Shown here piece after piece: positions 1 through 23,362 of a DNA stretch of 64,000 nt (positions within the stretch are counted from its first letter, which is position 1; each line of letters starts with the position of its first letter). The stretch is from an uncultured Clostridia bacterium. GTDB lineage: Bacteria; Bacillota; Clostridia; Oscillospirales; JAAYOS01. The stretch lies in assembly GCA_947631015.1 (NCBI GenBank), contig CANRJS010000001.1, positions 95,561-159,560 of the forward strand. Reading direction: 5' to 3'. The notes beneath the pieces are model-generated. The model saw only the letters and a program-made list of their open reading frames with translations, was not told the origin of the DNA and did no database searches. The translations under genes were made by a program, and so were the position numbers.

Positions 1-34
1 AGCATGCCTGTCTACACTTGTCAACAGCTTTTTC

Positions 35-69
35 AAAAAATGTCCGGCCGATCCGAAGAACCGGCCGGA
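35..69 (-). terminator. intrinsic-terminator-like hairpin at the window edge
   Basis: An 8-bp GC stem TCCGGCCG/CGGCCGGA (43-50/62-69). On the minus strand it is followed by T6 (plus-strand A35-40). Confidence 0.4.
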
Positions 70-191
70 TAAGGTCAGCGGTCGCCCGTACCGCCTCTCT
101 TTGCGGTATTAAGCGAGGCTATCGGGATACGTTTTATCTCCTGCAAAGCGGTAAAAACAAACATAGATTGCATCAGGTCTTTGCAGGAGAG

Positions 192-220
192 TGGACAAAG
201 CTGCCCATTTATGTTATACT
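192..220 (+). promoter_or_regulatory. sigma-70-type promoter of the ABC exporter gene
   Basis: TGGACA, 17-nt spacer, TATACT, about 40 nt upstream of ATG 262. AAGGTG SD lies before the ATG. Confidence 0.45.
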
Positions 221-261
221 GAGAACATCTTAACGAGATTTTTGCTTATGAAGGTGCAACA

Positions 262-2308: not shown

Positions 2309-2345
2309 AAAAAAGAAGCAGTCCCAAAGGGACTGCTTCTTTTTT
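2309..2345 (-). terminator. bidirectional intrinsic terminator, probably the pre-insertion ssrA terminator
   Basis: A6, then an 11-bp perfect stem GAAGCAGTCCC/GGGACTGCTTC (2315-2339), then T6. It directly abuts the orphan tmRNA 3' fragment. Confidence 0.8.
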
Positions 2346-2371
2346 GGTGGAGGCGGGGGGGAGTTGGACCC
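2345..2371. repeat. attL: orphan copy of the last 26 nt of tmRNA
   Basis: TGGTGGAGGC-G7-AGTTGGACCC. It is identical to 14829-14854 except for one extra G in the G run. Confidence 0.85.
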
Positions 2372-2419
2372 GCTGTAAACTCCCCCAAACCCCTTGCGCC
2401 CCAACGCTTTCACAAATCC

Positions 2420-2431
2420 GTGTGCATTTCC
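2420..2431. promoter_or_regulatory. putative integrase arm-type box (P arm)
   Basis: GTGTGCATTTCC lies 50 nt inside attL and matches the GTGTGCATTTTC triple repeat at 14671-14706. Confidence 0.5.
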
Positions 2432-2437
2432 CCCCCC

Positions 2438-5400
2438 TCACGGCGTCGGCAGACTCACCCACTCCGGCACATCTTCCTCCTCGCGGTTGAGCCTGTCCGC
2501 GACCTCCTCGCCGAGCCTTGTGTCATACGGGTTTTTCTTCGGCGACCAGTTCTTAGCCTGCGCCTGCCAAAGCACGGCCTTCTCCTCGCGCGTGAGCTGC
2601 TTCATACTGCCGAGCGCGTCCGCGACCTCTGCCTGGGTGTAGCTTCCGTTCCCGTCGTCGTAGTCCGGCAGCGCCTCCATGAGCTCGGTCCAACTCTCGG
2701 AGCTCACGCCGAACTCTCCCGCCGCCGCGACCTTGTCGTAGGCCGCCTCGGTGAGGACGGTCTTCATCGCCGCGAGCCTCGCTTCTTCTATATCAGTCGC
2801 ATTCACGACCGCGCGCATCTTCTCGGCCTTCGTCATTTCGTCCCCCTCGATCTCGCGGAGCAGCTCGAAGGCGTCCCTCTGCCCCATGCCGGCGTCGGTC
2901 ATCTCGCGGTAGGCCGTGGTCTGCTTTGCGGAGAGACTGTCAAATCCGCTTCTCACCCAGTCCTGCGCCGTGTCGAGCGAGCTCTTGCCCATTATCATCG
3001 ACTTCACGACGTCCCAGAACGAGCCCGCGCCCTCGTCCGTGTACTCCGGGTACTGAAGAATGTCCTCGCCCTTGGAGTTTACGGTGTAGCTTCCGCCAGC
3101 GGCGCTCGTCGCTGCGCCCTCTATTACGCGCCGGACGGCTCCGCCTCCGGCGGGCGGCAGGAGGTAAGTGAACGGCTTCGAGAGCTCGTCCGCCGCCGTC
3201 TTCCGGCGCTTCTCCGGCGCCCAGTCGGGATTTGTCGCGGCGCTCCAAAGGTTTGTGAAGCTCGGTTTTGCGCTGCTTACCGGAATACGCCCGCCCCCGA
3301 GCAGGCCGCCGACAAACGGCAGCTCCTCCGCGACGTTCTTTGCGAGGTTCTTGCCGGCTCCGTAGACGCCCTCCTGCTCGGTCTCAAAGCTCGGCATGTC
3401 CCCGGTTATCGCTCCTTTTGCGAGCCGGAAGACATTCGGCAGCTCGTAGCCGGTGAGGTCCCCGACCGTGTCGTTGAGGATGCCTATCGGGTCGAGCGCC
3501 GGGCGGTAGCCCGTCAGCAGCTCGCTGGCCTCGTTGAAGAGCCACGCCCCTATCGCGAACTTGAGCAGCGCCCACGCGAGGCTTGCCATGCCCTTCTCCC
3601 TGTGTTCGCGCGGAACGTCCTTCATTAAGTAGCTGAACTGATTGTTGACTTCAAGCTGGAACTGCGTGAAGAGCTTCGTCACGGGATTTGCGCGGCTGAA
3701 GAGCGTCGGCATGGAGCCCTTCGACCGCGCCGCCATGACTCCCGCCGCCCACGCGTCCGCCTCGTCCATCGCGCTCTGCTCGGAGAGGCCGCGCTTCACG
3801 TTCTGCGCGTACCGCGCGCGCACGAGCGTCTCGCTCGAGAAGCGGTCTACCGTCTCCATCAGGTCGCGCGCCATGCGGAGCGGCGTCTTCCCGACTATTT
3901 CCTGCGTCCTCGTCTGCACGAGCCGCTCGCTCCCGCGGCGGTTCGTGAGGAACTCGCTCATGTCCGAGAAGTCGTCTAGCGGCATATTGTCCGAGAGCGC
4001 TTCGATGATGCCGCCGACGCTCCACCCGCCGTTCCTTACCGCCTGCATGAACTTGGCGCGCGGGCTGTGCGCCTTGAGCGTGTCCCACATTCCGCGCAGC
4101 ACCGTCCCGCCTCCGAGGTCCGCCCAGCCCTGGGTTATCGGGATGAAGTTCGTCGTGGCGCTCCGGACGTTGAAGCCGACCATGTTCGCACCGACACGGC
4201 TCTCGAGCGCCTTGAGTACGTTGTACATCCCGCGCCCGGCGTCCGCCTCCATCTGACGGTCCGCGCGGCTCTTCTTCCCGGCAAGGAGGTTCGTGTACTC
4301 ATCTATCCACCCCGCGAAGTTGCTGAGCTCATACGGTCCTTTATCCACCTTGGTGCGTATCTGGTCCTGCTTTTCCTCCTCGGTGAGCTTGTCGTCCGCC
4401 CGTATCCTCTCGATGTCTGCCTGAATGCTCTCGTCCGTCGTCCGCTCTCGCGTGGCCGTGGCGAGCGCGCGGAGGCGCTGTATGTCGTCCGTGTGCCATA
4501 TCACGTCCGCCGCGACCTCGAGATAGCGGTCGAAGCCCTCTACCGCGTCGAAGGTAGTGGCGTTGCCCTTCCGTTCGAGCGCCGCGCCCATCCAACGTAT
4601 ACCCGGCTTGAAGTCCTCGGTCCTGCCGTTTATCGTCGTCGGGAGGTTTGTCACCTCGGTCTGCACGCCGAACGCCTTTCCGAGCCACCCGAGCACGCCG
4701 GAGCGCTGCTCGCTTTGGAAGTGCGGGAAGTACCCGCGCCGGTAGCTTATCGGCTCGTAGCCGTTTCGGACGCGCACCTCGTTTATCTTCTTGAACAGGT
4801 AGTCGTAGAGCTCGCGGAACGTCTCGACGGCGTTCTCTATCTTCGCGCGGTCGATGTTCGGGTTCTCCTTCCACGCGTTTTCGAGCGCGCCGCGCCACTC
4901 TTCGAGCGTCATGCCGCCGCGCTTCGCCTGCGGATCGCGCGCGTTCGCGCCTGTCGAGAGGACGGCTATGTTGTCCTCCGCCTCGCCGACGAACTGCACC
5001 AAAGCGGCCGCGCTCATGCTGTTCCCCTTCTTCACTCTGCGGGAAAGGTTGAGCTCGCGCACCTTGTCGCGCAGACGGTTCTTCATCTTGGTGCTCTCGG
5101 CCTCGTTCTTGTGTACCGGCGTGAAGTAGGTGTCGATGATCTCCTGCGCCTTCTCGTCGTCTCCGACGACGTCGCGGACGTTCCGCTCCGCCGTCTCGCG
5201 GGAATACAGGACGCCCATCTTCTTGTCGTGCCACTTCTCCGCGCCCTTGAGCATCTCCTTCGCTTCGTCGCGAAGCGTGGCCGCGCGGCCTTCGTTGTAC
5301 TCGCGGAGCTTGCCGACTATTTCCTCGTGTTTGCGTGCGGCCTCATAAACTGCCTGTATCCCCTTGACGTTATCCTTTGCGGGGTCAAGGTCTTCGATCT

Positions 5401-8400
5401 GTATGTCCCCCTTGAGCAGGCGTCCGACCTTTGTTTTGTCCTCGTCGATAAGCAGATTCCGCGCCTTGGCTTTTTCGAGTGCGCGGCGCGTCTCCTTCAT
5501 CTCAGCATAGAGCGCCGCTGCTTCCTCTGCGGTCATTGACCGGAGCTGCTTTCTCGCCTCCCTTGCCGCTTCCTCAGCGGCTCGTTTTGCCTCGCTCGCC
5601 TGTGCGTATCGCTTTATGTCACGGAGCTTTGGCACCGTATCGTAGACCGCCTCGTTGAAGTTGTGCCGGAGTATGCTCTTGTACGCCTCGGCATTTGTCC
5701 CGCCGTTCTCGTCCAGAGTGCGCTCGGTTCGCGCTATCGCCTGTGAGACAAACGCCATTCTCTCAATGCGGTTTATTTCACCCGTTATACTTTCGGGGAA
5801 CAATTCGGGCGCCGCCGAACTCAGTTCCTCGTAGAAATCACCCGCCGAACGCGCCGTACCGTCCGCGGCGTTCTCGGCTTTTACAAGCGTCAACCGGCCA
5901 AACACGCTTTTCCGGAACTGCTCCCAGTTCGGCATGCTCTCTCTAAGCTCCGGCCCTACGCTTATCTTTGTATCTCGGAGATACGTTTTCACCGGCTTGT
6001 ACATCTCGTAGAACGCGCTGTCGATTATCCTGCCCGCATTGTATGCCTGCTCGAATGCGTCCGAAAGCGACTCCTCCGAAATGCTTCCGTTCCCGAGATA
6101 TTCGTCCGCAAGCGTCTCGACAAGGTTTCCGACGACGGTTCTCTGTGCGGCCTTCGGAATCGAGAGTGCGTTCCCTATCGCGGCGCGCATATAACTTTCA
6201 GCCGAACGCAGATAACTCCGCGCCTTTGTCGGCAGCTTTGCCCGTTCGGTTCCGGCGGCATCGGCAGTTTCTCCGCTTTCCGCAGCATCCGGGGCGGTAT
6301 TGTCTCCGTTTCTTTTGCGGAAGAAATCTGCCCACATCTCATTTTCCACCATCTGCGCCGGTATCCTCTGCCGTTCTTCTTCGTCCCGTTCTGCTCTTAT
6401 TTCCGCATCCTCCCTTGCAAGGTTTATCGCATTCTGCCTCGCAGCGGAGAGCTTAGAGAGTGACGAGTCTACCGCGTCGTCGAAGTGGTGGCGCATAAAC
6501 TGCCTGTCTATCTCCTCCGACAGTCCGTTTCCCGCCGCTTTTCTCGCTGCGCCCTCTGCTGCTCTGACCGTATAAAGAAGCCGCGAAAGTTTGTCTGCCG
6601 TGTTGAGCTCCTCGCTATGACCATTCCCGTCCGATATTATGTCCGGAAGCATCTGCGGATCTATTCTCTGCGCTTCTTTGTAGACTTCGCGGAAGGGGAT
6701 TCCGTTTTCCCCGAAAGTCATCAGCCCGGAGGCGCTTCGCTCAAAGCTCGCCCAATGCTCCATTTCTGCGCGCTCTTTCGGGTCAACCGCTATTGTCACG
6801 CCGCTCACATAGTCCTTTATTTTCCCATACTTTTCGGCAACCTCGCTTTCGCTCTGTCTTGTCGCTTCATACGCTTTATCAAAGGCCGTATTTCTCGCCT
6901 CATCGGTGAGTGTCCCCGATTTATAATAGTTTTGTGCAAGCTCGCCTACCGCTTCGCCGATTATCTCGGCTTGAACGCCGCGCGGTACTCCGAGGCTGTT
7001 TCCGACCGCGCGGAGCAGATAAGTCTCCGCGCTTTTCAGTTCCTTTCTTGCTGAGTATGGAAGATGGCTCTGTGCCGGAAGCGTTTGTTCTTCCGTTCCC
7101 GCATCTGCATTTTCTGCTATTTCACGGCTCTGCACATCTGTGTCCGGCGACGGAAGGTGTATCCACTCCGGCCACGCATCCTGCTCTGCGGACGGCTCGT
7201 TTGCCTCAAGGCTATTCCAGTCTTCATCCTCCGACAGCTCGCGCCCCTCGCTGTCCTCGCTGATGCTGTACTCAGGGACACTCGGTTTCGGAATATATTT
7301 TGCAGCGTCACCCTTGACAAGCGCGAGCAAATCCTTTACACTAATTGTAGAAGAAGATTCCGAAGGGTGCTTAACGGCGACGTTTGTCGCGTCCGTGGGT
7401 GCTGAACTGGAGGAATCTTCTTTTTCTATTTCTTCCAGTACGAGCACATTACCATCATACAGGCTTGCATAAGTCTCTGACTGCATCTTGTCCTCAAGGT
7501 ATTCCCTGACTGTTCTCGGAATATCCTGTCCGGCAAGATTATATTCTTTGACCTTCAGCTTTACCGGTTTACTCCCTTGCTCTGTCCTCGCAGCAGCGAA
7601 AAGAGTATACACTCCGGTAGTATGGTCTCCGGGTGCGTTTCTGCTCTGCTCAGCGTGGGTAAATACTGCTTCTTCCAAAAGCTCCCTCAGATGCTTAGCT
7701 ACACCGATCTGGTCTCTGCCAAGGTTGGAAAACGTATGTGTAATACTCTGCGGTGTAATGAATATACTCTCGCCCGTATCCCGGTTCACTACCGGCGCGG
7801 AATACATCTCACGAGCTGCGTCGCTTGCGAGGAAAGCCCGCCGCTGCTCCGCTATGCGTTCGGTGCTTGTCCCCCGTATGTCCACTATGGCTATGTCCGG
7901 CTTCGCTATCAGGTCTTCATAAGTCGGTTCGCTGACTTCCGAAAAGCTGTACTCCGGCCCGTTTCTGAGCGCGTCTTCGGCGCTGTAATTCTCGTCGAAC
8001 TCGCGGTCGTACTCCTCCTCGCTCATCTCTCCCGCGGCGAGGCGCTCCCCGGCCTGACGCAGTCTCTCGCGGCGCGTCTCGGCGGCGGTCTCCTCCGCGC
8101 GTGCGGATACTGCCGCGTCCGCCCTCGCCCTCGCATCGACGGTGCGCCGTCTCGCGCGCCCCTTGACGTTCTCCGCGTCATCCAGAGCGCGGGCATACAG
8201 ATTGACCGCCCGGCGCACGAACGCGCGCTCGCGCGCCGCGTCGCTTCCGAGCTTCGCGAGAAGGGAGTCGAGCCGGTTTTTTATCCGGACGGCGAGCCCG
8301 CGGTTCTCCCGCACCATCCTGATAACGGCGTCCTCGTCTGTGAGGAGGTGCTTTTCGATGTACTCCGCGACGAGCTCGCGGTCTACGGCGGCGTTGTCCG

Positions 8401-11368
8401 CAAGCGCCGCGCCGCTTCTCTCGTAGAGCGCCGCCTTCTGCTTCCTCGCGTCCTCCACACTCTCGCCGCTCTCGCGCATCCGCGAGAGCACCATGTCCGA
8501 GAGCTGACTGTACAGCTTGGAGCCCTCTAGCGAGTGCGTCAGCTCGTGGCTTATTATCTGCGCCACGGGGTTTCCGCTCTCCGCGTTGACGTATATCACG
8601 CCGCCCTTGTAGTACCCGTTCGCTCCCGCGGCGGTGCTGCTCTCCGCCGAGCGGCTGTCGTAGAAGCGCACCTCCCGCCCGACGGCGCGGCTTATCCGCT
8701 CCGCCGCCGATATGTCCTCGTCCCTCGCGCCCGCGAGTATCCCTGTTTTCTCGACCTCGCTCCGCGCCAGGGCCGCGCGGTTGCGGCGGTTGAACTCCTC
8801 GCCCACCGTCAGCGGCATGGGCTCCGCCGAAGTCGCGCTTCGCTCCGGCGAACTCTCGCTTCGTTCCTGCGAAGTCCCGCCGCTTTCCCGCGCTCTGTCC
8901 CATTGGCGCGTAATCTCATCCGAGAGCGTCTGCGCCGTCGGACGCGCCTGTTCCGTGTTGACATTCTGTCCCGGCTGTGATATACTATCATTGAAAGAAC
9001 CAGACGACGGCACGTTTCGGACGTTCTCCCCAGGGGCGGAAGCAATTCCGGCATTGGGGGTCGTATCAGTAGGTTCTTTCTTTTTTTGTACCCACATGGA
9101 GTCTGTCGCCAGCGCGTGCCGCCCGTCCGTTACTGCCTGCGCCGTGACAATGTTGTCCCCGATTTGCTTTTCAAATATGAGGACTTGCCGACCATACGCA
9201 TCTGTATCCGGAGAAAGAGCCACAGAATCAGGCGCAGCGAGCACCTGCGAGATCAGGGGGAAGTCGTCCGGTGTTACCGCCCGTTGCCCCCTTGCGGCCT
9301 CGGTCCGCTCGTTGCCGTGGTGATTGAAGATATGCTGTACCACGCTCCCTTGCAATATCGCGTTGTAACCCGCGACGTTGACGCCCGTGGACTCCATTAC
9401 CGTCTGCGCGGCGGAATCGGGTATCGTACCCATATAGAGCCGCTCCGAGCCGCCCTTCTTCCTCAAGGCATTTCGGACAAACGCGACAATATCGTCTTTT
9501 GTCCTTGCGATGATGTTGTTTTTCCCTGTCGCCAGACGGCTTGCCGCCTTTTCCGACACGGGCACTAGCTCAGGCACCGCTTCCGCGTTTTCGCTCTGCC
9601 GCACCTCCGCAGCATTTCCGGCTTCCTGCTGCACCTCCGCAGCGCGTTCCGCCGCCCTCGCGCGGCGGTTTATTGTGCCCTGATATATCGAGCCGGGCGC
9701 GCCCATAATACCGCCGGAGATCATTCCGCCAAGTACGTCCATGCCTATATCGCCGAGTTTGTCCGCCATGGCCTGTCCGAAGGCTTTGCCCTCGCTCATG
9801 CCCTGTTCTTCGTATTTGCGGACAGCCGTGCGCCACTCGCTTTCGTCTCCCGCGATAAGCACGTCAAAGAACGTGTTGATTATGTTGGACGCGCCTTCCT
9901 CGCTGCCTTCCACCCCTACCTGAGCGAGCCAACGAAGGAACGCGCTCTTTCCCGGTTCCGCTTTCTTGAACAGTTGGTCGAGGCTGAACTTCTCGGTGAA
10001 CACCTCGGCAGCTCCGGCAATAATACCGAGCGCAAGCGCCTGACCGTCTCCGAGACCGCGGTCAAGCGCACTCTGTACCTTGCTCGCGCCCGCGTCCGCG
10101 GCCATAAGCGCGAGACCCGAACCTTCGCCGAACAGCACTCCGCGCATGGCGTTGTCGCCGATGCTCATCAGCTGGTCATACGCATACGCCCACCCCGAGC
10201 CGTAATTCTCTGTTATGTACTCGTTTACGGCGCTTCTTGCCGCCGTCGTCCGGTTTATCGAGCTGTAATAGCCCGCGTCCCGTTCAAGCCGCCCGTCCTC
10301 GAGGAAGTCCCCGATTGCTCCGGCGGCAGGCGCTATTCCCCTGTACGGGGAGAGCATGACGCTCGCGATGCTCGTCCCTACCGGGTCCTCTTTTGCGTAC
10401 TCGGCCATCCTCTGCTCCTCGTACTCGCGTTCCCGCGCGTTGAGGCTCCCGCCTGTGTAATTCGGGTCGGTCGCTATGAACTCGATAAACTCGTCTGCGG
10501 CTGCTTCTCCCTGCTTGTTATACAGGTAGTTGTAGATAGCTATCTCGTCCGGCGTCATGCGCTGGAGGCGGTCGCTGCCTATGCCCGCCTCCGATATTCC
10601 GAGGAGCTGTTCGTTTGCTCCCGCAACGTCCCGCGCCGCCTCGTTGCCGTTTATGTAGTCATACTTCACGTCTCCGAAGCCCGTGTCGGTGTACATCCCC
10701 GCGAGCGCGTTATACTTCGGCTCGCCGTGCTGTGTGCTCCTATACTGCGACGCCGCCGCGAAGTCCGGCTCCCGCATCAGCGCGGCGTATTCGGCGGCGC
10801 GCTTGCCGGTTGCCTGCTTCGCTTTCGCGTCCTCGAGTAGGTTTTCCGCGGCCTGCCTCCGCTCGTAGTCGCGGCTCGTCTCGTAGGCGTTTATCCTCTC
10901 GGCGATGTCCCGCGCGCGGTTTGCCTCCTCGTCCGAAACGACGTGGCTCTCCGCGCGCTCCCGCATCTGCTTCTGCTCGTTCTTCAGCCGCTCGTACTCC
11001 TGCGCCTCCGGCGTCGCCGTGACCCGCCGGACGGTGTTCCGCGCGCGGTTGCGGCTGTCGAAGTCGTCCCGGCTCGCGCCGTACTTCGCCGCCCTCTCCG
11101 CCGCGTAGTTCCAATTCGAGTATTCCGTCTGCCGGGCGGCGCTTTCGCTCCGCTCGGCTTTTCTCGCCGCTATTCTCTCTTCCGCCTCTGCCCGCGCCGC
11201 AGTCTGCCGCTCCTGTATCAGCTTCTGCCTGTCGCTTGCAGTACCGGCAGCGGTGCCGGAGGCGGCGGCCTTCCGCCCGGCTATTCTCTTTTGAGCGTCG
11301 CTTCTTGCCGTTGCCTGCCTCTCCCGAAGGAGATTCTTCCGTTCTTCTTCCGTAAGCCTTACCGCCAT
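2438..11368 (-). CDS. giant polyvalent-type protein (2976 aa) with a zincin HExxH module
   Basis: An uninterrupted 8.9-kb ORF with SD GAGGTG 5 nt before the ATG. It has a HELTH motif (nt 8534-8548), two globular nuclease/LPD-like modules, an internal roughly 215-aa duplication and Gly-rich hydrophobic segments. Confidence 0.85.
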   Translation of the reverse strand: MAVRLTEEERKNLLRERQATARSDAQKRIAGRKAAASGTAAGTASDRQKLIQERQTAARAEAEERIAARKAERSESAARQTEYSNWNYAAERAAKYGASRDDFDSRNRARNTVRRVTATPEAQEYERLKNEQKQMRERAESHVVSDEEANRARDIAERINAYETSRDYERRQAAENLLEDAKAKQATGKRAAEYAALMREPDFAAASQYRSTQHGEPKYNALAGMYTDTGFGDVKYDYINGNEAARDVAGANEQLLGISEAGIGSDRLQRMTPDEIAIYNYLYNKQGEAAADEFIEFIATDPNYTGGSLNAREREYEEQRMAEYAKEDPVGTSIASVMLSPYRGIAPAAGAIGDFLEDGRLERDAGYYSSINRTTAARSAVNEYITENYGSGWAYAYDQLMSIGDNAMRGVLFGEGSGLALMAADAGASKVQSALDRGLGDGQALALGIIAGAAEVFTEKFSLDQLFKKAEPGKSAFLRWLAQVGVEGSEEGASNIINTFFDVLIAGDESEWRTAVRKYEEQGMSEGKAFGQAMADKLGDIGMDVLGGMISGGIMGAPGSIYQGTINRRARAAERAAEVQQEAGNAAEVRQSENAEAVPELVPVSEKAASRLATGKNNIIARTKDDIVAFVRNALRKKGGSERLYMGTIPDSAAQTVMESTGVNVAGYNAILQGSVVQHIFNHHGNERTEAARGQRAVTPDDFPLISQVLAAPDSVALSPDTDAYGRQVLIFEKQIGDNIVTAQAVTDGRHALATDSMWVQKKKEPTDTTPNAGIASAPGENVRNVPSSGSFNDSISQPGQNVNTEQARPTAQTLSDEITRQWDRARESGGTSQERSESSPERSATSAEPMPLTVGEEFNRRNRAALARSEVEKTGILAGARDEDISAAERISRAVGREVRFYDSRSAESSTAAGANGYYKGGVIYVNAESGNPVAQIISHELTHSLEGSKLYSQLSDMVLSRMRESGESVEDARKQKAALYERSGAALADNAAVDRELVAEYIEKHLLTDEDAVIRMVRENRGLAVRIKNRLDSLLAKLGSDAARERAFVRRAVNLYARALDDAENVKGRARRRTVDARARADAAVSARAEETAAETRRERLRQAGERLAAGEMSEEEYDREFDENYSAEDALRNGPEYSFSEVSEPTYEDLIAKPDIAIVDIRGTSTERIAEQRRAFLASDAAREMYSAPVVNRDTGESIFITPQSITHTFSNLGRDQIGVAKHLRELLEEAVFTHAEQSRNAPGDHTTGVYTLFAAARTEQGSKPVKLKVKEYNLAGQDIPRTVREYLEDKMQSETYASLYDGNVLVLEEIEKEDSSSSAPTDATNVAVKHPSESSSTISVKDLLALVKGDAAKYIPKPSVPEYSISEDSEGRELSEDEDWNSLEANEPSAEQDAWPEWIHLPSPDTDVQSREIAENADAGTEEQTLPAQSHLPYSARKELKSAETYLLRAVGNSLGVPRGVQAEIIGEAVGELAQNYYKSGTLTDEARNTAFDKAYEATRQSESEVAEKYGKIKDYVSGVTIAVDPKERAEMEHWASFERSASGLMTFGENGIPFREVYKEAQRIDPQMLPDIISDGNGHSEELNTADKLSRLLYTVRAAEGAARKAAGNGLSEEIDRQFMRHHFDDAVDSSLSKLSAARQNAINLAREDAEIRAERDEEERQRIPAQMVENEMWADFFRKRNGDNTAPDAAESGETADAAGTERAKLPTKARSYLRSAESYMRAAIGNALSIPKAAQRTVVGNLVETLADEYLGNGSISEESLSDAFEQAYNAGRIIDSAFYEMYKPVKTYLRDTKISVGPELRESMPNWEQFRKSVFGRLTLVKAENAADGTARSAGDFYEELSSAAPELFPESITGEINRIERMAFVSQAIARTERTLDENGGTNAEAYKSILRHNFNEAVYDTVPKLRDIKRYAQASEAKRAAEEAAREARKQLRSMTAEEAAALYAEMKETRRALEKAKARNLLIDEDKTKVGRLLKGDIQIEDLDPAKDNVKGIQAVYEAARKHEEIVGKLREYNEGRAATLRDEAKEMLKGAEKWHDKKMGVLYSRETAERNVRDVVGDDEKAQEIIDTYFTPVHKNEAESTKMKNRLRDKVRELNLSRRVKKGNSMSAAALVQFVGEAEDNIAVLSTGANARDPQAKRGGMTLEEWRGALENAWKENPNIDRAKIENAVETFRELYDYLFKKINEVRVRNGYEPISYRRGYFPHFQSEQRSGVLGWLGKAFGVQTEVTNLPTTINGRTEDFKPGIRWMGAALERKGNATTFDAVEGFDRYLEVAADVIWHTDDIQRLRALATATRERTTDESIQADIERIRADDKLTEEEKQDQIRTKVDKGPYELSNFAGWIDEYTNLLAGKKSRADRQMEADAGRGMYNVLKALESRVGANMVGFNVRSATTNFIPITQGWADLGGGTVLRGMWDTLKAHSPRAKFMQAVRNGGWSVGGIIEALSDNMPLDDFSDMSEFLTNRRGSERLVQTRTQEIVGKTPLRMARDLMETVDRFSSETLVRARYAQNVKRGLSEQSAMDEADAWAAGVMAARSKGSMPTLFSRANPVTKLFTQFQLEVNNQFSYLMKDVPREHREKGMASLAWALLKFAIGAWLFNEASELLTGYRPALDPIGILNDTVGDLTGYELPNVFRLAKGAITGDMPSFETEQEGVYGAGKNLAKNVAEELPFVGGLLGGGRIPVSSAKPSFTNLWSAATNPDWAPEKRRKTAADELSKPFTYLLPPAGGGAVRRVIEGAATSAAGGSYTVNSKGEDILQYPEYTDEGAGSFWDVVKSMIMGKSSLDTAQDWVRSGFDSLSAKQTTAYREMTDAGMGQRDAFELLREIEGDEMTKAEKMRAVVNATDIEEARLAAMKTVLTEAAYDKVAAAGEFGVSSESWTELMEALPDYDDGNGSYTQAEVADALGSMKQLTREEKAVLWQAQAKNWSPKKNPYDTRLGEEVADRLNREEEDVPEWVSLPTP

Positions 11369-11377
11369 ATCCGCACC

Positions 11378-12250
11378 TCACAGAACTCCGACATATTTTT
11401 TCGTGCTCCCGCATACGTTGTTGCCGTATTCGTCCACGTCAATGACAACGACTTCGCCGCGCGCCAGCATCTCGTCGAGGTCTTCCTGTGTCACCCTGCC
11501 GTAGCCCTCCACCGTGACATAGCTTCTGCCGGACGGGGTTTTCCCGCTCGTTTCATTCGGCACGTTCTTCAACTCCTCCGAGGCTCTGCGCGCCTTCTCG
11601 GTCTTGTAGAACTCCCACATCTGTTCTATCTGGCTCTGTGTCCAGCCCTGCCTTACGAGATATTCATACGCCCGAGCGTCGTCGCCGTAGGAGATCATCG
11701 CGTCGATGAGGCTCTGCGTCTCGCCGTTCTCCGCGCTCTCGGAGCTCCCGCTTCCGCCGCTTCCGCTCGCCGCCCTCGCCGCACGGTCAAGCGCGTCCTG
11801 CCGGAGGTTATAGTCCCATTCGCGCTGACGCCATTCGTCTTCGACTGCATCCCTTCCGACGCCGTAGTCGAACTCCTTCTGCCTCCACTCGTCGTCGAGG
11901 GCGTCCCTCTGCGCCTGATACTCGCGGTCAAGGCGGTCCTGCTCGCGGTTGTAGGCCGTCTCGTCCTCGTAGCGGCGGCGGTCCTCCTCTTCGAGCAGCC
12001 CCGTGTGATAGCGGTCATAGTCGGTCTGCTCCTGACCCTGAAGTGCCGCAAGCGTGCTCTGCATCCGGCTGTAATCGTCCAGATACTGCCCGTAGGCGAA
12101 ATTGCGGTCGGCGTTGTACTGGTTGAGCTCGTCGAGGTACTTCGCGTACTCGTTCTGCTCCTGCGTGTTGACGTCTCCGAGCGCCTGCCGCTTCATCGAG
12201 TAGTCGTCCAGATACTTCTGATATGCCTGCTGGTAGAGCTGCGGGATCAT
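11378..12250 (-). CDS. aromatic/acidic repeat protein (290 aa), function unknown
   Basis: Its TGA stop overlaps the SD of the giant gene, indicating translational coupling. It has periodic D/E-x-Y/W repeats, including DEWRQKEFDY and DEWRQREWDY. There is no SD before ATG 12250, so the start is uncertain. Confidence 0.6.
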   Translation of the reverse strand: MIPQLYQQAYQKYLDDYSMKRQALGDVNTQEQNEYAKYLDELNQYNADRNFAYGQYLDDYSRMQSTLAALQGQEQTDYDRYHTGLLEEEDRRRYEDETAYNREQDRLDREYQAQRDALDDEWRQKEFDYGVGRDAVEDEWRQREWDYNLRQDALDRAARAASGSGGSGSSESAENGETQSLIDAMISYGDDARAYEYLVRQGWTQSQIEQMWEFYKTEKARRASEELKNVPNETSGKTPSGRSYVTVEGYGRVTQEDLDEMLARGEVVVIDVDEYGNNVCGSTKKYVGVL

Positions 12251-12500
12251 GTCATTCAGCTGCGCCGCATAGTAGTCCCCGGCCTGTCCCGCGGCGGCGA
12301 CGGCATAGCTCGAGGGACGTCCCGCGCTCGCGGCGTGCTCATCTCGCTCAACCCTGACTATTCGCCCGTCCCCATGACCGAGGATACCTGGTGCAACGGC
12401 CGCGTCATAGGCGTCCTCGACCCCTCCGACATCGCCCGGCTCTGAGAGTACAGCCGCAACATCTTGTTTACAAGTGAATAACCCAGCCTATATCTTGCTG

Positions 12501-12529
12501 TTGATTTTTTGCTTCTCCCCGCGTATAAT
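12501..12529 (+). promoter_or_regulatory. near-consensus sigma-70 promoter facing the tandem repeats
   Basis: TTGATT (12501-12506), 17-nt spacer, TATAAT (12524-12529). No ORF follows it. Confidence 0.5.
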
Positions 12530-12600
12530 ATAGACGTGGAGTGATCCACGGGTGAGAATGTAACGCCCAATCGCCGTTATCATCTTCACCACTCGTCCAA

Positions 12601-12710
12601 GCGGAGAGTCCGAGCCGAAAATCGGAACCGGAAAAAGCGGTGAGCTCCTGCCGTTAAACGGAGCCTCAAAAAAGCGGAGAGTCCCTGCCGTCAAGTGGGA
12701 ACCGGAAAAA
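12601..12710. repeat. three tandem 36/37-nt repeats with covarying stems
   Basis: The units are 12601-12636, 12637-12673 and 12674-12710. Each starts GCGG(A/T)GAG and ends in A5-6. Internal stems are TCCGA/TCGGA, GCTCC/GGAGC and TCCC/GGGA. Confidence 0.75.
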
Positions 12711-12744
12711 GCAAGATTGGCATCACTGCCGGTCTTGCTTTTTT
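12711..12744 (+). terminator. intrinsic terminator, also usable on the minus strand
   Basis: Stem GCAAGA..GGCA-TCAC-TGCC..TCTTGC followed by T6 (12739-12744). A5 precedes it, so the reverse strand also reads as a hairpin followed by a T run. Confidence 0.65.
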
Positions 12745-12769
12745 CTGTCGGGAAAACTCACGAACACAT

Positions 12770-12798
12770 ATTTAAATGTTTGTATTTCCTCTTGACAA
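12770..12798 (-). promoter_or_regulatory. possible leftward promoter of the 290-aa/giant-gene operon
   Basis: On the minus strand: TTGTCA, 17-nt spacer, TTAAAT. Its -35 box overlaps the -35 box of the hicA promoter (back-to-back arrangement). Confidence 0.3.
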
Positions 12799-12820
12799 AT
12801 ACTTTTATATGTGTTATTAT
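12792..12820 (+). promoter_or_regulatory. hicAB promoter
   Basis: TTGACA (12792-12797), 17-nt spacer, TATTAT (12815-12820). SD GGAGGGGAGG lies before ATG 12843. Confidence 0.65.
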
Positions 12821-12842
12821 TGTTTTGTCAGGAGGGGAGGAT

Positions 12843-13040
12843 ATGAAAAGCTACTCATCGCGGGAGGTCATTAAGATTCTGAACGCGGACGGATGGTACG
12901 AGGTCAGATGTGTCGGCGACCATCACCAGTTCAGACATCCGACGAAGCCCGGGCTCGTCACGGTGACTCACCCGGTCAAGGACATCCCGAGAAGGACCCC
13001 CGGCAGCATAGAGAAGCAGGCCGGCATCAAGCTCCCCTGA
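12843..13040 (+). CDS. hicA: HicA-family mRNA interferase toxin
   Basis: 65 aa: MKSYSSREVIKILNADGWYEV...GDHHQFRHP...VTVTHP. This is the typical HicA length and motif pattern. The internal ATG of the 107-aa ORF was chosen because of the SD. Confidence 0.85.
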   Translation: MKSYSSREVIKILNADGWYEVRCVGDHHQFRHPTKPGLVTVTHPVKDIPRRTPGSIEKQAGIKLP

Positions 13041-13080
13041 TGCCGGCGCTCCCCCGATTTTCTCGAAAGGAGCTATTGAT

Positions 13081-13482
13081 ATGGAGAAGACCTACTACTC
13101 TTATCCCGCTTATTTTTACTACGATGAAGACGGCATATCCATCGAATTTCCCGACCTTCCCGGCTGTCTGCCCTGCGGTGCCTCCACCGAGGAGGCTTTC
13201 AAAAACGCCAGGGAAGCGCTCGGCCTTCACCTGTTCGGGCTGGAGCAGGAGCACGAGCCCATCCCGGCGCCCACGCCCGTGAAGGATCTTCATCCCGAGC
13301 CCGGCGCAGTCGCCGCCATGGTGGAGGTCTATATGCCGTCCGTTCGCTATGCCGCTGTCAACAAAGCGGTAAACCGCACCGTCACCCTCCCCGCATGGCT
13401 CAACGCCGCGGCGGTCGAGAGAAACGTCAACTTCTCGCAGGTGCTTCAGGACGCGCTGAAGCGTCAGCTCGGCGTGCGATAA
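13081..13482 (+). CDS. hicB: HicB-family antitoxin with a C-terminal RHH/CopG-like tail
   Basis: 133 aa. The N-terminus (YPAYFYYDEDGISIEFPDLPGC...EEAFKNAREAL) is HicB-like. The C-terminus (NRTVTLPAWLN...FSQVLQDALK) is ribbon-helix-helix-like. Confidence 0.85.
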   Translation: MEKTYYSYPAYFYYDEDGISIEFPDLPGCLPCGASTEEAFKNAREALGLHLFGLEQEHEPIPAPTPVKDLHPEPGAVAAMVEVYMPSVRYAAVNKAVNRTVTLPAWLNAAAVERNVNFSQVLQDALKRQLGVR

Positions 13483-13484
13483 AC

Positions 13485-13521
13485 AAAAAAATCTCCCCCG
13501 GGGCGGCCACCCCGGAGGAGA
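13485..13521 (-). terminator. strong minus-strand intrinsic terminator between hicB and int
   Basis: A 12-bp stem TCTCCCCCGGGG/CCCCGGAGGAGA with one mismatch. On the minus strand it is followed by T7 (plus-strand A13485-13491). Confidence 0.55.
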
Positions 13522-13611
13522 CGTGCAAAAGTCGTATACCCACAAAGCACGGCACCTTTGCGCCCTTATTGTACCACACGGGGCGCTTCGGTGCAAGGAG
13601 AAGGAGAAAAT

Positions 13612-14664
13612 ATGCCCCGCAAATCGAAAATAAGAGTTCCCGAGCCGACACGCCTCCCCTCCGGGCGCTGGAGGATACAGCTCCAGATAGACGGCCGGCG
13701 TCTCTCCGTCACGGAGGACGACCCGAAGGAGTGCCAGGCTCGAGCCGTCGCTCTGAAGGCCGGCCTCATAGAGCAGGCGGCGAAACCGAACCGGATAACG
13801 CTCCGCGCCGCGATAGATAAATATATCGACTCGCGCTCTGCCGTCCTCTCGCCCTCCACGATACGCGGCTACCGCGTCATCCAGCGCAACAGGTTCAAGG
13901 CGCTGATGGATAGGCCGGTTTCCGAGATAACAAAAGAGACGATGCAGCGCGCAGTAAACTCGGAGGCCCGTCGGCTCTCCCCCAAAAGCGTAACAAACGC
14001 GTACTTATTTGTTTCGTCGGTTATCTATAATGAGACAGGGAACCGCTATGATGTTGCCCTTCCGCGCCTCATGCCGCACGAGCGGCCTTTTCTCTCGGCC
14101 GATGAGATCACCGTGCTGCTCAATGCTATCCGCGGCACCGAAGCCGAGGCGCCCATACTGTTTGGCCTGCAAAGCCTCCGCCGGTCGGAAATCCTCGGGC
14201 TTCGGTGGTGCGACGTGGACCTCGCTCGCGGCACGGCACACATCCGGCACACCCGCGTCCAAGGTGAAAAAGGAATGGCGGACAAGAACACAGCGAAGAA
14301 CAGTTCGTCCTACCGAACCATTCGACTGCCTCAAAGACTCGTTGATCTCCTTCGCGATATGCCTCATGGTGATGACGACAGCGAACGCATCTTCTCCTTC
14401 GGCCCCAACTATATAAGAGCCAATGTTAATCGAGTTTGTAAGCGTCTCGGCCTTCCGGAGGTAGGCACGCACGGGCTTCGGCACAGCTTCGCCTCGCTCG
14501 GCTATTACCTCGAAGTTCCGGCGAAGGTCATTCAGAAGGCCGGCGGATGGTCGGACGATCACACCATGCTGAAAATATATACCCATGTCTCCGAGAAGTA
14601 CGTCGAGCGTCAACGCACGGCGCTTAGTAACTTCTTCGACGAGGCCGACAAGCCCACCGGGTGA
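13612..14664 (+). CDS. tyrosine recombinase / phage-type integrase
   Basis: 350 aa from the ATG that follows SD AAGGAGAAGGAG. Catalytic signature: LRRSEILGLRW (R), HGLRHSFAS (H-x-x-R), GWSDDHTMLKIYTH (W/H and Y). Confidence 0.9.
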   Translation: MPRKSKIRVPEPTRLPSGRWRIQLQIDGRRLSVTEDDPKECQARAVALKAGLIEQAAKPNRITLRAAIDKYIDSRSAVLSPSTIRGYRVIQRNRFKALMDRPVSEITKETMQRAVNSEARRLSPKSVTNAYLFVSSVIYNETGNRYDVALPRLMPHERPFLSADEITVLLNAIRGTEAEAPILFGLQSLRRSEILGLRWCDVDLARGTAHIRHTRVQGEKGMADKNTAKNSSSYRTIRLPQRLVDLLRDMPHGDDDSERIFSFGPNYIRANVNRVCKRLGLPEVGTHGLRHSFASLGYYLEVPAKVIQKAGGWSDDHTMLKIYTHVSEKYVERQRTALSNFFDEADKPTG

Positions 14665-14670
14665 TTCGCC

Positions 14671-14706
14671 GTGTGCATTTTCGTGTGCATTTTCGTGTGC
14701 ATTTTG
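14671..14706. repeat. three tandem 12-bp GTGTGCATTTTC boxes (putative integrase arm-type sites, P' arm)
   Basis: Perfect head-to-tail copies at 14671, 14683 and 14695, lying between the int stop codon and attR. A related copy lies at 2420-2431. Confidence 0.6.
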
Positions 14707-14828
14707 TACCTCGAAACGGCTGTAAATACCTTCTCAGTTTCAAAACCCGTTTCGCGGCGGCGAAAGCTGAAACCGTTGCGAGAGTAGGATTAGAGCCCGA
14801 AACCTTTGCGGTTTCGGGCTCTTAAAAA

Positions 14829-14854
14829 TGGTGGAGGCGGGGGGAGTTGGACCC
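14829..14854. repeat. attR core (inside the functional tmRNA 3' end)
   Basis: TGGTGGAGGC-G6-AGTTGGACCC, the direct-repeat partner of 2345-2371. Confidence 0.85.
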
Positions 14855-15179
14855 CCGTCCGAAAACACTTCCTCGTGATCTTCTCCGGGTGCAGCCGAAT
14901 GTTTAAGTTTCCCTCCCCGCATCGCCGATCGGCGGGCTATGCGGGTAGGTAGTCCGATAATTCATGCACCCCGCTCAGGACGTTGCGGGGGCACGTTCAC
15001 CGCTTAGTCACGCCCGAGCCGGAGCCGCGGTACTCTCCGGGCGGACGGCAGCCTTTAGTTAGGCCGCGTAAGCAAGACTATTGTCGTTACTTAATTTATA
15101 AAGGTTGCCCTTTTAACGTGGTGGGCGCCACGACCCGCTTATCACGCACCCGCGTCCCCGTCGAAACCGGTACGCCCCC
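14829..15179 (-). ncRNA. ssrA: tmRNA (transfer-messenger RNA)
   Basis: On the minus strand the 5' end reads GGGGGCGTACCGGTTTCGACGGGGAC and the 3' end reads GGACGGGGGTCCAACTCCCCCCGCCTCCACCA. The acceptor stem has the G3:U pair. The tag ORF ends ...SNDNSLAYAA-TAA (stop at 15059-15061). Total length is 351 nt. Confidence 0.92.
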
Positions 15180-15226: not shown

Positions 15227-15925
15227 TTACTTTATCGTCTCCGGCTCGGGATAGTCCACGCCGAAGGTATCGACCGTCACGGTGGAAATCTTCTGGTCGG
15301 TGGTAGGACGGTCATAGTAGTCGGTTTTTACCGTCTCTATATTATACACGACGTCCATGCCCTCTATGACCTTGCCGAAGGCGGCGTAATTCCCGTCGAG
15401 GTGCGGCGAATTGCTCGTCATGATGAAGAACTGACTTCCCGCGCTGTCCGGATCGTTCGCGCGCGCCATCGAGAGCACGCCCGGCGTGTGCTTGAGGTCG
15501 TTCTCAAAGCCGTTGGACGTAAACTCGCCCTTTATCGAGTAGTCCGGACCGCCCGAGCCGGTCCCGTCCGGCGAACCGCCCTGAATCATGAAGCCTTCAA
15601 CGACGCGGTGGAATATGACTCCGTCATAAAATCCGCTCTTTACAAGGCTTATGAAGTTGTTGACGGTGTTCGGCGCGACGTCCGGATACAGCTCCGCGAC
15701 TATCACTCCCCCGTCCTCCATGGTTATCGTTACCTGTGGATTCTGCACTTCTTCTTCCTCCCCGTTGTTATCTTCCGCCTCTTCCGAGGGGTTTTCCGTG
15801 TTTTCTCCGACTATGACCTTCGTCGGACCGTCCTCACTGCTGATGACGCCCGCCGAACAGCCGCCGACGGCGACCGCTCCGAGCAGCATAGCAAGCAAAA
15901 TGAGTACCGAAACCGTCCTCTTCAT
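15227..15925 (-). CDS. cyclophilin-type peptidyl-prolyl isomerase lipoprotein
   Basis: The signal peptide has the lipobox AVGGC. Cyclophilin motifs FHRVVEGFMIQGG and GSQFFI are present. Confidence 0.9.
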   Translation of the reverse strand: MKRTVSVLILLAMLLGAVAVGGCSAGVISSEDGPTKVIVGENTENPSEEAEDNNGEEEEVQNPQVTITMEDGGVIVAELYPDVAPNTVNNFISLVKSGFYDGVIFHRVVEGFMIQGGSPDGTGSGGPDYSIKGEFTSNGFENDLKHTPGVLSMARANDPDSAGSQFFIMTSNSPHLDGNYAAFGKVIEGMDVVYNIETVKTDYYDRPTTDQKISTVTVDTFGVDYPEPETIK

Positions 15926-15940: not shown

Positions 15941-16408
15941 TTACCTGTTTCGCGATTTCATCACTCTGTCCATCTCGCGCTTCGCGTCCCGCTCGGCGGC
16001 GGCGGCGCGCTTGTCGTGCAGATGCTTGCCCTTCGCGAGCGCTATTTCGACCTTAACGCGCGGCCCCTTGAGATACACCGATATCGGCACCAATGTATAT
16101 CCGTCCTGCTCGACCTTTGCCGCGAGCTTCCAAATCTCCCGCTTGTGCAGGAGCAGACGCTTGGGACGGAGCGGGTCGCGGTTGAAGATGTTTCCCTTCT
16201 CGTATGGGCTGATGTGCATACCGCGCACCCACATCTCGCCGTCCTTAACGGTACAGAACGCGTCGCGCAGGTTGACGGCGCCCAGACGTATCGACTTCAC
16301 CTCGGTGCCGTACAGCTCCACGCCCGCCTCGTACCTGTCCTCAATGAAATAGTCGTGGAACGCCTTGCGGTTGGTGGCAAGGCTCTTGATATTCTCTTTC
16401 CCGGCCAC
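15941..16408 (-). CDS. smpB: SsrA-binding protein SmpB
   Basis: 155 aa: NRKAFHDYFIEDRYEAGVELYGTEVKS...LLLHKREI. It lies 0.8 kb from ssrA. Confidence 0.95.
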   Translation of the reverse strand: MAGKENIKSLATNRKAFHDYFIEDRYEAGVELYGTEVKSIRLGAVNLRDAFCTVKDGEMWVRGMHISPYEKGNIFNRDPLRPKRLLLHKREIWKLAAKVEQDGYTLVPISVYLKGPRVKVEIALAKGKHLHDKRAAAAERDAKREMDRVMKSRNR

Positions 16409-20202: not shown

Positions 20203-20207
20203 CCGAT

Positions 20208-20921: not shown

Positions 20922-20947
20922 AAATCCCGGAAAGAGCAATTTGCCTA

Positions 20948-20976
20948 TTGACAGACTGAATTTCATGTGATATACT
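20948..20976 (+). promoter_or_regulatory. trp operon promoter
   Basis: TTGACA, 17-nt spacer, TATACT. Confidence 0.6.
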
Positions 20977-20989
20977 CTGCTAAACCGTT

Positions 20990-21254: not shown

Positions 21255-21294
21255 CGCACCCCGGCGGGAGAAACGCTTGCGAGGAGGTATGTAC

Positions 21295-23336: not shown

Positions 23337-23362
23337 CAACAAAACGAAAAGGAGTGCTTTTC

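Follow-up and report, generated by a model that had tools for sequence, protein, structure and literature searches.

The cryptic prophages CP4-57 of E. coli and CP4So of Shewanella (PMC5148205) entered the tmRNA gene at its 3' end through a tyrosine integrase, with duplication of that end, and massive loss of phage DNA has left the integrase and toxin-antitoxin genes in place. Both are P4-like remnants of Proteobacteria, and both keep the AlpA excisionase and many more genes. Phage satellites (P4-like, PICI, cfPICI, PLE and PICMI elements) are small and integrated, with an integrase and att sites beside a tRNA-like gene. The phage-type polyvalent proteins described by Iyer, Burroughs, Anand, de Souza and Aravind in 2017 (PMC5512222) are multi-domain giants encoded among virion genes, and are predicted to be packaged and injected together with the DNA. 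Copies stranded in host genomes by prophages were already noted in that work, which also proposed that hosts capture prophage polyvalent proteins to target incoming elements. Phages can escape the type III toxin-antitoxin system ToxIN by means of a pseudo-ToxI RNA (PMC5086642).

We analysed a 64-kb stretch of DNA, referred to as the window, that carries a 12.5-kb island (2345-14854) with the same mode of insertion and the same kind of retained genes as CP4-57 and CP4So. Unlike them, it belongs to another phage type, resides in gut Clostridia, lacks an excisionase ORF and consists to 71% of one 8.9-kb gene. Its genes are a 2976-aa ORF, a 290-aa ORF, an RNA repeat array, hicA, hicB and a tyrosine integrase (Table 1). 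A preliminary description had listed this gene content, which we recover as described, and had noted the lack of a phage, plasmid or conjugation backbone, which ORF, Pfam and PHROG scans bear out. It had concluded that the island is a vehicle for one gene and does not fit a prophage; the occurrence of homologues in larger phages and the presence of a truncated virion gene contradict this. Very probably the island is what is left, in cryptic form, of a ~40-kb temperate phage whose interior was lost by deletion. Such a remnant is a known kind of object and not a new class of mobile element.

Table 1. Features of the island and its borders, in window coordinates.
Feature	Position	Strand	Basis
Bidirectional hairpin terminator A6-stem-T6, original ssrA terminator, now adjoining attL	2309..2345	.	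read from sequence
attL core, orphan copy of tmRNA 3' end (G7 not G6)	2345..2371	.	repeat search
Single GTGTGCATTT box, putative arm-type integrase site, giant-gene (P') arm	2420..2429	+	sequence count
Intact gene for predicted phage polyvalent / internal-virion protein, 2976 aa	2438..11368	-	Pfam and PHROG matches, 386 homologues
5'-truncated remnant of 327-665-aa virion-block gene (ORF as called 11378-12250, 290 aa)	11378..12334	-	homologue alignment
Putative deletion junction, ~130 nt	12335..12465	.	no detectable homologue
Predicted orphan toxI-like type III antitoxin RNA gene	12501..12748	+	promoter, repeat and homologue analysis
toxI promoter TTGATT-17-TATAAT	12501-12529	+	promoter scan
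toxI array, 3.1 tandem units of 36-37 nt	12599-12712	+	
toxI terminator hairpin	12701-12748	+	
hicAB type II toxin-antitoxin cassette	12792..13482	+	Pfam HicA_toxin 2.8e-18, HicB_lk_antitox 2.3e-13
hicAB own promoter TTGACA-17-TATTAT	12792-12820	+	promoter scan
hicA	12843-13040	+	PF07927
hicB	13081-13482	+	PF15919
Tyrosine integrase, 350 aa, apparently intact	13612..14664	+	Pfam and phrog_1 matches
Three tandem GTGTGCATTT boxes, 12-nt period, putative arm-type sites, int (P) arm	14671..14704	+	sequence count
attR core, functional ssrA 3' end, last 26 nt of tmRNA	14829..14854	.	repeat, Rfam and empty-site alignment
tmRNA gene (ssrA), intact host gene, integration target	14829..15179	-	Rfam RF00023, 158.6 bits, E 1.3e-62, model 1-374

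The borders of the island are set by the direct repeat TGGTGGAGGC-G7/G6-AGTTGGACCC. Exactly two copies are present in the window, 27 nt long on the left (G7) and 26 nt on the right (G6), against a chance expectation of 0 matches. The right copy forms the end of a tmRNA gene that Rfam detects at full length and ARAGORN missed, and smpB and a PPIase gene lie just past this gene. The left copy adjoins the hairpin terminator, and the same A6-stem-T6 hairpin directly follows the tmRNA CCA end in two relatives with an unoccupied site (L214, L216); a third (L207) has a comparable terminator at the same position behind the tmRNA. The window contains exactly four copies of the motif GTGTGCATTT, one inside the left border and three inside the right. 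Two copies occupy the position of the right-hand boxes in the phage locus L017, and in L157, a related integrated prophage, two boxes separate the giant-gene end from a tRNA gene. The preliminary description had proposed the flanking repeat, the tmRNA identity of its right copy, the placement of the orphan left copy against the pre-insertion ssrA terminator and the matching boxes just inside both ends, and each of these assignments holds.

It had also called for a search of related genomes for an empty site. A look-up with the SmpB protein exposed such sites in loci 97% identical (L214, L216) and 93% identical (L207, L211, L212), and exact-protein look-ups with PPIase and the ABC transporter returned island carriers only. 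In the empty-site loci only one 26-nt core is present and the tmRNA 3' end runs directly into the homologue of window positions 2371 to 2188, and the alignment of the window with these loci breaks exactly at the attL core. Single-core empty sites in relatives at both degrees of identity thus establish the Campbell-type insertion into the ssrA 3' end that had been suggested. The island is present in an NCBI MAG contig of 169 kb as well as in three or more independent ENA assemblies. The carriers are near-identical, and the look-ups confine the island architecture to one strain lineage and one site.

The giant protein comprises a conserved N-terminal region, a PBECR3 RNase (residues 655-764), a HELTH zincin motif, an LPD3 domain (residues 1185-1276) and a conserved C-terminal part of ~1270 aa (residues 1707-2976), which is 44% identical to protein P0007 over residues 1707-2854. 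Its length is typical: 93 complete homologues span 2270-4026 aa, the median being 2919 aa. With the phage-type polyvalent proteins (PMC5512222) it shares the combination of a PBECR RNase, a zincin peptidase motif and an LPD domain in one polypeptide, and the location of its homologues among virion genes. It differs from them in that its conserved N-terminal and C-terminal regions have no Pfam or PDB match in sequence searches, and in that the MuF_C domain, present in many homologues, is not detected. Judged by its sequence, the gene is a typical one for a phage polyvalent internal-virion protein, and packaging of the product into virions is predicted. Within the GenBank phage collection a giant homologue is found only in one unannotated faecal 'Bacteriophage sp.', so no named phage can be put forward as a relative.

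The genomic context of the giant gene was surveyed in 130 loci, comprising 80 from IMG/VR, 46 genome contigs and 4 metagenome look-ups. IMG/VR holds viral-looking contigs only, which biases it to phage contexts; no such bias affects the genome contigs or the metagenome look-ups. All four metagenome look-ups (L011, L013, L014, L015) place the giant homologue in a phage, behind a virion block that encodes a Gp58-like protein followed by proteins of ~127, ~530 and ~540 aa. The last gene of the block is 412 aa long in L014, and a portal gene separates the last two genes in L015. The ~530-aa protein matches phrog_511, an 'internal virion protein'. Contigs carrying homologues cluster at 39-43 kb, and phage relatives occur in MAGs of Oscillospiraceae, Butyricicoccaceae and Acutalibacteraceae. 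The preliminary description had called for recording whether giant homologues sit in full phages or in a minimal int-hicAB setting; they are embedded in larger phages, the outcome it had named as pointing to a simple deletion remnant.

The gene upstream of the giant ORF is uncut by a contig end in 98 loci besides the window. It is an ORF of 327-665 aa in 97 of them, with a 68-aa fragment in L168 alone, and it adjoins the giant ORF in 91. The corresponding gene of the window is the 290-aa ORF, residue 2 of which falls on residue 215 in the alignments with the 543-aa and 511-aa homologues. Homology continues in frame and start-less to position 12334 (residue 186) at 70% identity, and then ends abruptly. 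The window is the sole locus in which the upstream gene starts at residue 186/215, and the sole locus without the ~530-aa, ~127-aa and Gp58-like genes. A search for frameshifted virion-gene remains upstream of 12334 yielded insignificant matches only (E > 0.04). For the ensuing junction segment, tblastn and blastn give nothing significant against either the virion-block proteins or the loci fetched, and toxI-module homology to L118 begins at about 12465-12475. The 290-aa ORF, previously regarded as a repeat protein carried as cargo, is instead a 5'-truncated phage virion gene.

The integrase, reported earlier as an intact tyrosine recombinase, matches P0121 on L017 along its full length at 92% identity. 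The core of L017 is followed by GCTG, as on the inner side of the window attL, and other phage accessory genes (YopX) stand at the position of hicAB. A scan of viral contigs with the integrase alone revealed no relative. In L169, an unintegrated relative on a 43-kb contig, the giant stop codon is followed by arm repeats, a tRNA-3'-like core, arm repeats and int, the latter on the opposite strand, all within 280 nt. Since attP is bordered in the phage by the giant gene and int, integration puts these two at opposite ends of the prophage, and the island is what an internal deletion leaves.

What the preliminary description termed a repeat-RNA cassette is a genuine array, and its identity can now be specified as a ToxI-like array that lacks the toxin. 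A leader of ~60 nt with hairpins precedes the repeats. Homologous leader-array-terminator modules are followed by ToxN (PF13958, 8.2e-48; PADLOC AbiQ) in 11 loci, a 4-bp stem is kept in all 24 distinct repeat units, and all four of its pairs covary. The true array family came to light with a pattern of two units and with blastn searches of the fetched loci. A single-unit pattern returned isolated matches on viral contigs, most presumed to be chance, among which L102 and L118 proved to be true arrays; Rfam at a relaxed threshold gives only sub-threshold noise for the array. The module resembles toxIN and AbiQ in its promoter, tandem 36-37-nt repeats and Rho-independent terminator. Unlike in these systems, the window has no toxin gene, and hicAB with a promoter of its own comes after the terminator. 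Since tblastn finds no ToxN homologue in the 64-kb window and hicA follows instead, the cassette is best read as an orphan ToxI-like antitoxin gene, not a complete type III system.

The hicAB cassette has the expected order of HicA toxin and HicB antitoxin in one operon. Promoter and cassette are homologous to phage loci L130-L150, which have no RNA array, and hicAB sits where toxN lies in the relatives with toxI arrays. The array was also considered as a partner of hicAB; this was rejected, as it is absent upstream of the hicAB homologues in L130 and L149. None of the island proteins is matched to a defence system by PADLOC.

No head, tail, lysis, replication, repressor, excisionase or packaging-redirection gene is found in the island by ORF and Pfam scans. 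ORFs beyond the five genes, including those on the antisense strand, have no Pfam match, and there are no hidden ORFs. Pfam and PHROG scans of all ORFs detect no relaxase, oriT, coupling protein or T4SS, which sets the island apart from ICEs and IMEs. It likewise has no ORF for the regulation and replication functions (repressor or AlpA, primase or replicase, ori) expected of a satellite. Unlike phage satellites, it is devoid of a regulator and of capsid or packaging-redirection genes, contains a truncated virion gene of helper type, and does not recur as a family: no second instance of the architecture exists among 126 homologous loci (the IMG/VR and genome-contig samples). Three features of a cryptic prophage are present, namely an att-flanked insertion with an empty site, phage synteny of the homologues, and truncated or lost lytic genes. 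The only other int-hicB-giant neighbourhood, L176, has a different breakpoint, located inside the giant gene, so it is an independent decay event.

The ancestor would have belonged to a phage family common in Oscillospiraceae and related gut Clostridia that encodes a giant 'polyvalent' virion protein alongside internal virion proteins and a P22-type portal, and its attP would have lain between the 3' ends of the giant gene and int. Recombination by the integrase between ssrA and the attP core, 26 nt that match the tmRNA 3' end exactly, would have restored the host gene and left the prophage with the giant gene at one end and with int and the toxI and hicAB accessory (moron) cassettes at the other. 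A single internal deletion of ~28-30 kb, in situ after integration, then probably removed the genes for lysogeny control, replication, packaging, head, tail and lysis. One endpoint would fall within the virion gene that immediately precedes the giant gene (~12334) and the other shortly before the toxI promoter (~12465), and the survivors would be the two attP-proximal ends. No close full-length relative was recovered, and the best non-self giant homologue has only 48-50% identity across 35-41% of the query, which prevents base-by-base mapping of the deleted segment and of both breakpoints. The intactness of the giant ORF, int, hicAB and toxI implies either a recent deletion or selection for their retention.

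Selection is central to one other reading, in which a deletion remnant has been domesticated, the giant protein and the orphan ToxI acting against incoming phages or ToxN elements and hicAB stabilising the island. The intact 8.9-kb ORF and small cassettes, the promoter and terminator retained by toxI, the proposed capture of polyvalent proteins by hosts (PMC5512222) and the escape from ToxIN through pseudo-ToxI RNA (PMC5086642) are consistent with it. We nevertheless consider domestication unlikely: a promoter scan finds no sigma-70-like site upstream of the giant gene on its strand, the 64-kb window has no ToxN gene as a target for toxI, the near-identical carriers offer no divergence for testing purifying selection, and the island is absent from close relatives. 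Still less probable is a minimal element that remains mobile, with the giant gene as cargo and a helper phage of the L017 type providing excision control, replication and packaging. In its favour, the integrase is intact, as are the two att cores, the arm boxes at either end, the giant gene and the toxin-antitoxin cassettes, and L017, from another sample, has the closely similar integrase and the same attP arm. Yet such an element would have to do without a repressor, excisionase, replication or packaging-redirection gene, even a hidden one. The start-less virion-gene fragment is a signature of decay, not of design, the island is known from one lineage and one site, with none further among the 126 loci, and the only similar neighbourhood, L176, is broken elsewhere.

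A slim chance attaches to a satellite born by deletion that still excises by the intact integrase and hitch-hikes on intact L017-type phages, its payload being the giant injected effector and a ToxI decoy, with hicAB ensuring retention. If this were true, the orphan ToxI decoy RNA would neutralise ToxN-type abortive infection. A chimeric metagenome contig, fusing phage ends with the host ssrA locus, might be suspected from the low coverage of the assemblies (~7x per contig names). It is scarcely credible, since the structure and its internal junction recur in the independent ENA assemblies and the NCBI MAG contig, and the borders match the attB core of the empty sites to the base.

A deletion remnant of this kind shows that islands composed of an integrase and a giant gene can arise trivially when a phage with attP placed between int and a giant virion gene integrates and then loses its interior. 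Scans for new classes of mobile elements should test for truncated neighbours and for the gene pair flanking attP before novelty is claimed. The orphan toxI and the intact giant gene lend the remnant a modest interest of their own. A ToxI-like RNA family is defined here in phages of gut Clostridia, and its toxin-less copies could be decoys against abortive infection. The case shows a polyvalent-protein gene becoming stranded in a host chromosome, along the route proposed by Iyer et al. 2017 (PMC5512222), and points to a large uncultured family of ~40-kb phages in Oscillospiraceae with a giant protein that contains extensive unannotated conserved regions.

The core repeat TGGTGGAGGC-G(6/7)-AGTTGGACCC has exactly two copies in a pattern search of the 64-kb window, against a chance expectation of none. 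A full-length tmRNA match in Rfam (158.6 bits, E 1.3e-62, model positions 1-374) ends in the right copy, which is therefore the T-arm, acceptor and CCA end of ssrA; the smpB and cyclophilin-type PPIase neighbours are the expected surroundings of a host ssrA locus. ARAGORN called no tmRNA at this position of the window despite the full-length Rfam match, and scans based only on ARAGORN would overlook the gene. An exact-sequence look-up of SmpB led to contigs of related strains with an empty site. In L214 and L216, which share ~97% identity with the window lineage, the alignment crosses ssrA to its last base and picks up again at the equivalent of position 2371, the 26-nt core being common to both aligned blocks; L207, L211 and L212 (~93% identical) have the same junction. 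These junctions make the island borders exact. The hairpin terminator beside the left repeat directly follows CCA in L214 and L216, and the left hairpin is, by this comparison, the original ssrA terminator. The island itself is polymorphic among close relatives; three or more independent assemblies carry it, as does one NCBI MAG contig. The preliminary description had seen the repeat pair, the right copy ending a tmRNA and the left lying against a perfect pre-insertion terminator, and had called for relatives with an empty site; all of this is borne out.

The ABC-transporter gene to the left (window 1-1890 and leftward), with a GC content of 47-49% where the host has about 60%, and the adjacent BlaI/BlaR1-like genes (Penicillinase_R, Peptidase_M56) are missing in L207, L211 and L212. 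This difference is a separate indel of ~6 kb beside the ssrA site (19479-24860 of the comparison locus L009 versus L207 9580-10430). Downstream of ssrA, L207 carries tandem ~340-nt copies of a hairpin-rich repeat (9600-10340), one partial copy of which lies beside attL, the left repeat end, at window ~2150-2300. The window also holds a T-box leader (98 bits, 20979-21225) in front of a trpE-like gene for anthranilate synthase (21277-22773), and a tandem repeat at 27908-28145 (period 126 nt, 1.9 copies, 84% matches) with many CCCCGC/GCGGGG hairpins.

Features of the island and its borders, with members of the ToxI-like RNA family (window coordinates unless a comparison locus is named)
Feature	Position	Strand	Remark
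A6-stem-T6 hairpin	2309-2345		directly against left repeat
Left core repeat	2345-2371		
GTGTGCATTT box, one copy	2420-2429		
Giant ORF, 2976 aa	2438-11368	minus	
290-aa ORF	11378-12250	minus	
RNA repeat array	12599-12712		between 290-aa ORF and hicA
hicA	12843-13040		
hicB	13081-13482		
Tyrosine integrase, 350 aa	13612-14664		
GTGTGCATTT boxes, three in tandem	14671-14704		
Right core repeat	14829-14854		
tmRNA (ssrA)	14829-15179	minus	
Cyclophilin-type PPIase gene	15227-15925		beside ssrA
smpB	15941-16408		beside ssrA
ToxI-like family member	12501-12748		
ToxI-like family member	L102 8130-8887		
ToxI-like family member	L075 19746-20545		
ToxI-like family member	L206 260-500		

The gene inventory (giant gene, 290-aa ORF, RNA array, hicAB and tyrosine recombinase) stands as first listed, and the long antisense ORFs of the island have no Pfam match. 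Pfam recognises two domains in the giant protein, PBECR3 (residues 655-764), which is an RNase of the phage barnase/EndoU/RelE-like kind, and LPD3 (residues 1185-1276), with a HELTH zincin motif between them; the N-terminal 570 residues of the protein match PHROG 22978. By these domains it belongs to what Iyer et al. 2017 called 'polyvalent proteins'; the phage-type members of that class have their genes among those of the virion, and the prediction is that they are packaged with the DNA and injected along with it (PMC5512222). Among 5.8 billion proteins searched, 386 are homologues. They have in common the N-terminal region and, most markedly, the last ~1270 residues, around a variable middle; P0007, for example, shows 44% identity over residues 1707-2854. 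Many are on contigs of phage-genome size (39-43 kb). Since complete giant ORFs in the fetched loci range from 2270 to 4026 aa (median 2919), the gene of the window is full-length and typical of the family. A promoter scan found no sigma-70-like promoter left upstream of it. Two similar internal modules, 'LPYSARKELKSAETYLLRAVGNSLGVP...' and 'LPTKARSYLRSAESYMRAAIGNALSIP...', were read by eye at residues ~1390-1900 (window ~6200-7200), the second being the start of the region conserved in all homologues.

L011, L013, L014 and L015, four loci looked up in unselected assemblies of metagenomes and genomes, all have the giant gene in a phage neighbourhood, in the order lysis module or M23 peptidase, Gp58-like gene, ~127-aa gene, ~530-aa gene, ~540-aa gene, giant gene. 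For the ~530-aa protein the match is phrog_511, 'internal virion protein', and for the Gp58-like protein it is tail-needle and virion-structural families; the ~540-aa gene has 412 aa in L014, and a P22-type portal lies inside the block of L015, between the ~530-aa and ~540-aa genes. These loci were pooled with 80 IMG/VR and 46 genome-contig loci, the latter from MAGs mostly of Oscillospiraceae, Butyricicoccaceae, Acutalibacteraceae and other Clostridia. Besides the window, a ~540-aa-gene homologue uncut by a contig end is present in 98 of the pooled loci: it is an ORF of 327-665 aa in 97 and a 68-aa fragment in the single exception, L168, and it abuts the giant ORF in 91 loci. The conserved virion block, seen in the look-ups and the fetched loci alike, contradicts the earlier view that the island does not fit a prophage. 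L011 also has a reverse-transcriptase-like gene (2333-3097, weak RVT_1 match) adjoining tail-fibre-like genes, which may be a diversity-generating retroelement.

The 290-aa protein of the island is homologous to this ~540-aa upstream virion gene from residue 215 onward only, its residue 2 aligning with residue 215 of the 543-aa (L011) and 511-aa (L013) proteins. In-frame homology reaches past its ATG, without a start codon, up to window 12334 (residue 186), where it ends abruptly; the first 44 residues of the homologous stretch are 70% identical. The missing part covers half of residues ~130-270, a segment kept even in the most distant relatives, and the ~530-aa, ~127-aa and Gp58-like genes and all other phage genes are absent from the island. 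The break at 12334 is a deletion breakpoint within a gene, and what had been counted as a cargo 'repeat protein' is a 5'-truncated phage virion gene.

In L169, a 43-kb contig of a Faecousia MAG, the giant gene stops at 3418. After it come a terminator, TTCGTTGCCAATTTC repeats, a core resembling a tRNA 3' end (about 3620-3650), further TTCGTTGCCAATTTC repeats and the 3' end of the integrase gene (3694-4782, strand opposite to the giant gene). The giant gene and int here flank an attP that has arm-type repeats to its left and right. Integration at such an attP would leave the giant gene at one prophage end and int at the other, both reading outward, and the layout of the window matches this prediction exactly. 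L017, with a 92%-identical int, has GTGTGCATTT boxes and the core; after the core comes GCTG, as inside the window attL, instead of the tmRNA continuation, and the position of hicAB is taken by YopX and a further accessory gene. In the integrated relative L157 (14740-14975), two GTGTGCATTT boxes separate the end of the giant gene from a complete tRNA gene, so that related integrases with the same boxes target a tRNA gene, not the tmRNA gene. The only four mismatch-free copies of GTGTGCATTT in the 64 kb lie just within the two ends of the island, and the copies in L017 and L157 make their proposed role as arm-type integrase sites plausible. One internal deletion, between what are now ~12334 and ~12465, would turn the integrated phage into the island, with a loss of ~28-30 kb as judged from the 39-43-kb contig sizes. 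In L176 (8050-16717) host genes (scpAB, dacA-like, rluB-like) are followed by int, a solitary hicB and a giant gene lacking ~330 N-terminal codons, which shows an independent case of the same type of decay.

The RNA array has 3.1 tandem units of 36-37 nt, with a promoter (TTGATT-17-TATAAT) and structured leader upstream and a strong terminator downstream. Its leader, array and terminator recur in other loci, as shown by blastn on the fetched loci and by scanning metagenome contigs for a two-unit pattern; in 11 of these other loci, including the giant-gene phages L046, L075, L087 and L188, a ToxN-family gene (PF13958, E 8.2e-48; AbiQ in PADLOC) comes directly after. Such an arrangement matches the one that defines type III toxin-antitoxin loci (PMC5086642). 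A 4-bp Watson-Crick stem is kept in 24 of 24 distinct units, with compensatory changes at all four pairs. No ToxN homologue occurs in the whole 64-kb window. After the array terminator comes hicAB with its own promoter (TTGACA-17-TATTAT), homologous to phage hicAB cassettes without an array; the window order toxI-hicAB-int is that of toxI-toxN-int in the comparison locus L102. L206 is a further array without a toxin gene. The RNA cassette of the window is thus an orphan toxI, a minor lead. It could have been left over when a module was replaced, or it could act as a decoy like the pseudo-ToxI of phage escape mutants (PMC5086642). Across gut-Clostridia phages, this ToxI-like RNA family has a leader hairpin, GTGCGGAGnnATCCGCA, then three 36-37-nt units, and ToxN/AbiQ normally next, the window and L206 copies being toxin-less.

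A satellite would be recognised by regulator, replication and packaging genes, none of which the island has, and by an architecture that recurs, which that of the island does not; an integrative and conjugative or mobilizable element is opposed by the lack of relaxase and T4SS genes in the island. The island does show att duplication with an empty site, genes syntenic with phages, and essential modules truncated or lost, and it is therefore very probably a cryptic prophage, not a satellite or ICE/IME. Cryptic prophages at the ssrA 3' end, such as CP4-57 and CP4So, are well known and, like the island, have lost most of their phage DNA and kept int and toxin-antitoxin genes (PMC5148205). That prophages strand polyvalent-protein genes in host genomes has already been proposed (PMC5512222). 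The intactness of the giant gene may reflect either a recent deletion or selection, and its largely unannotated protein family is a minor lead.
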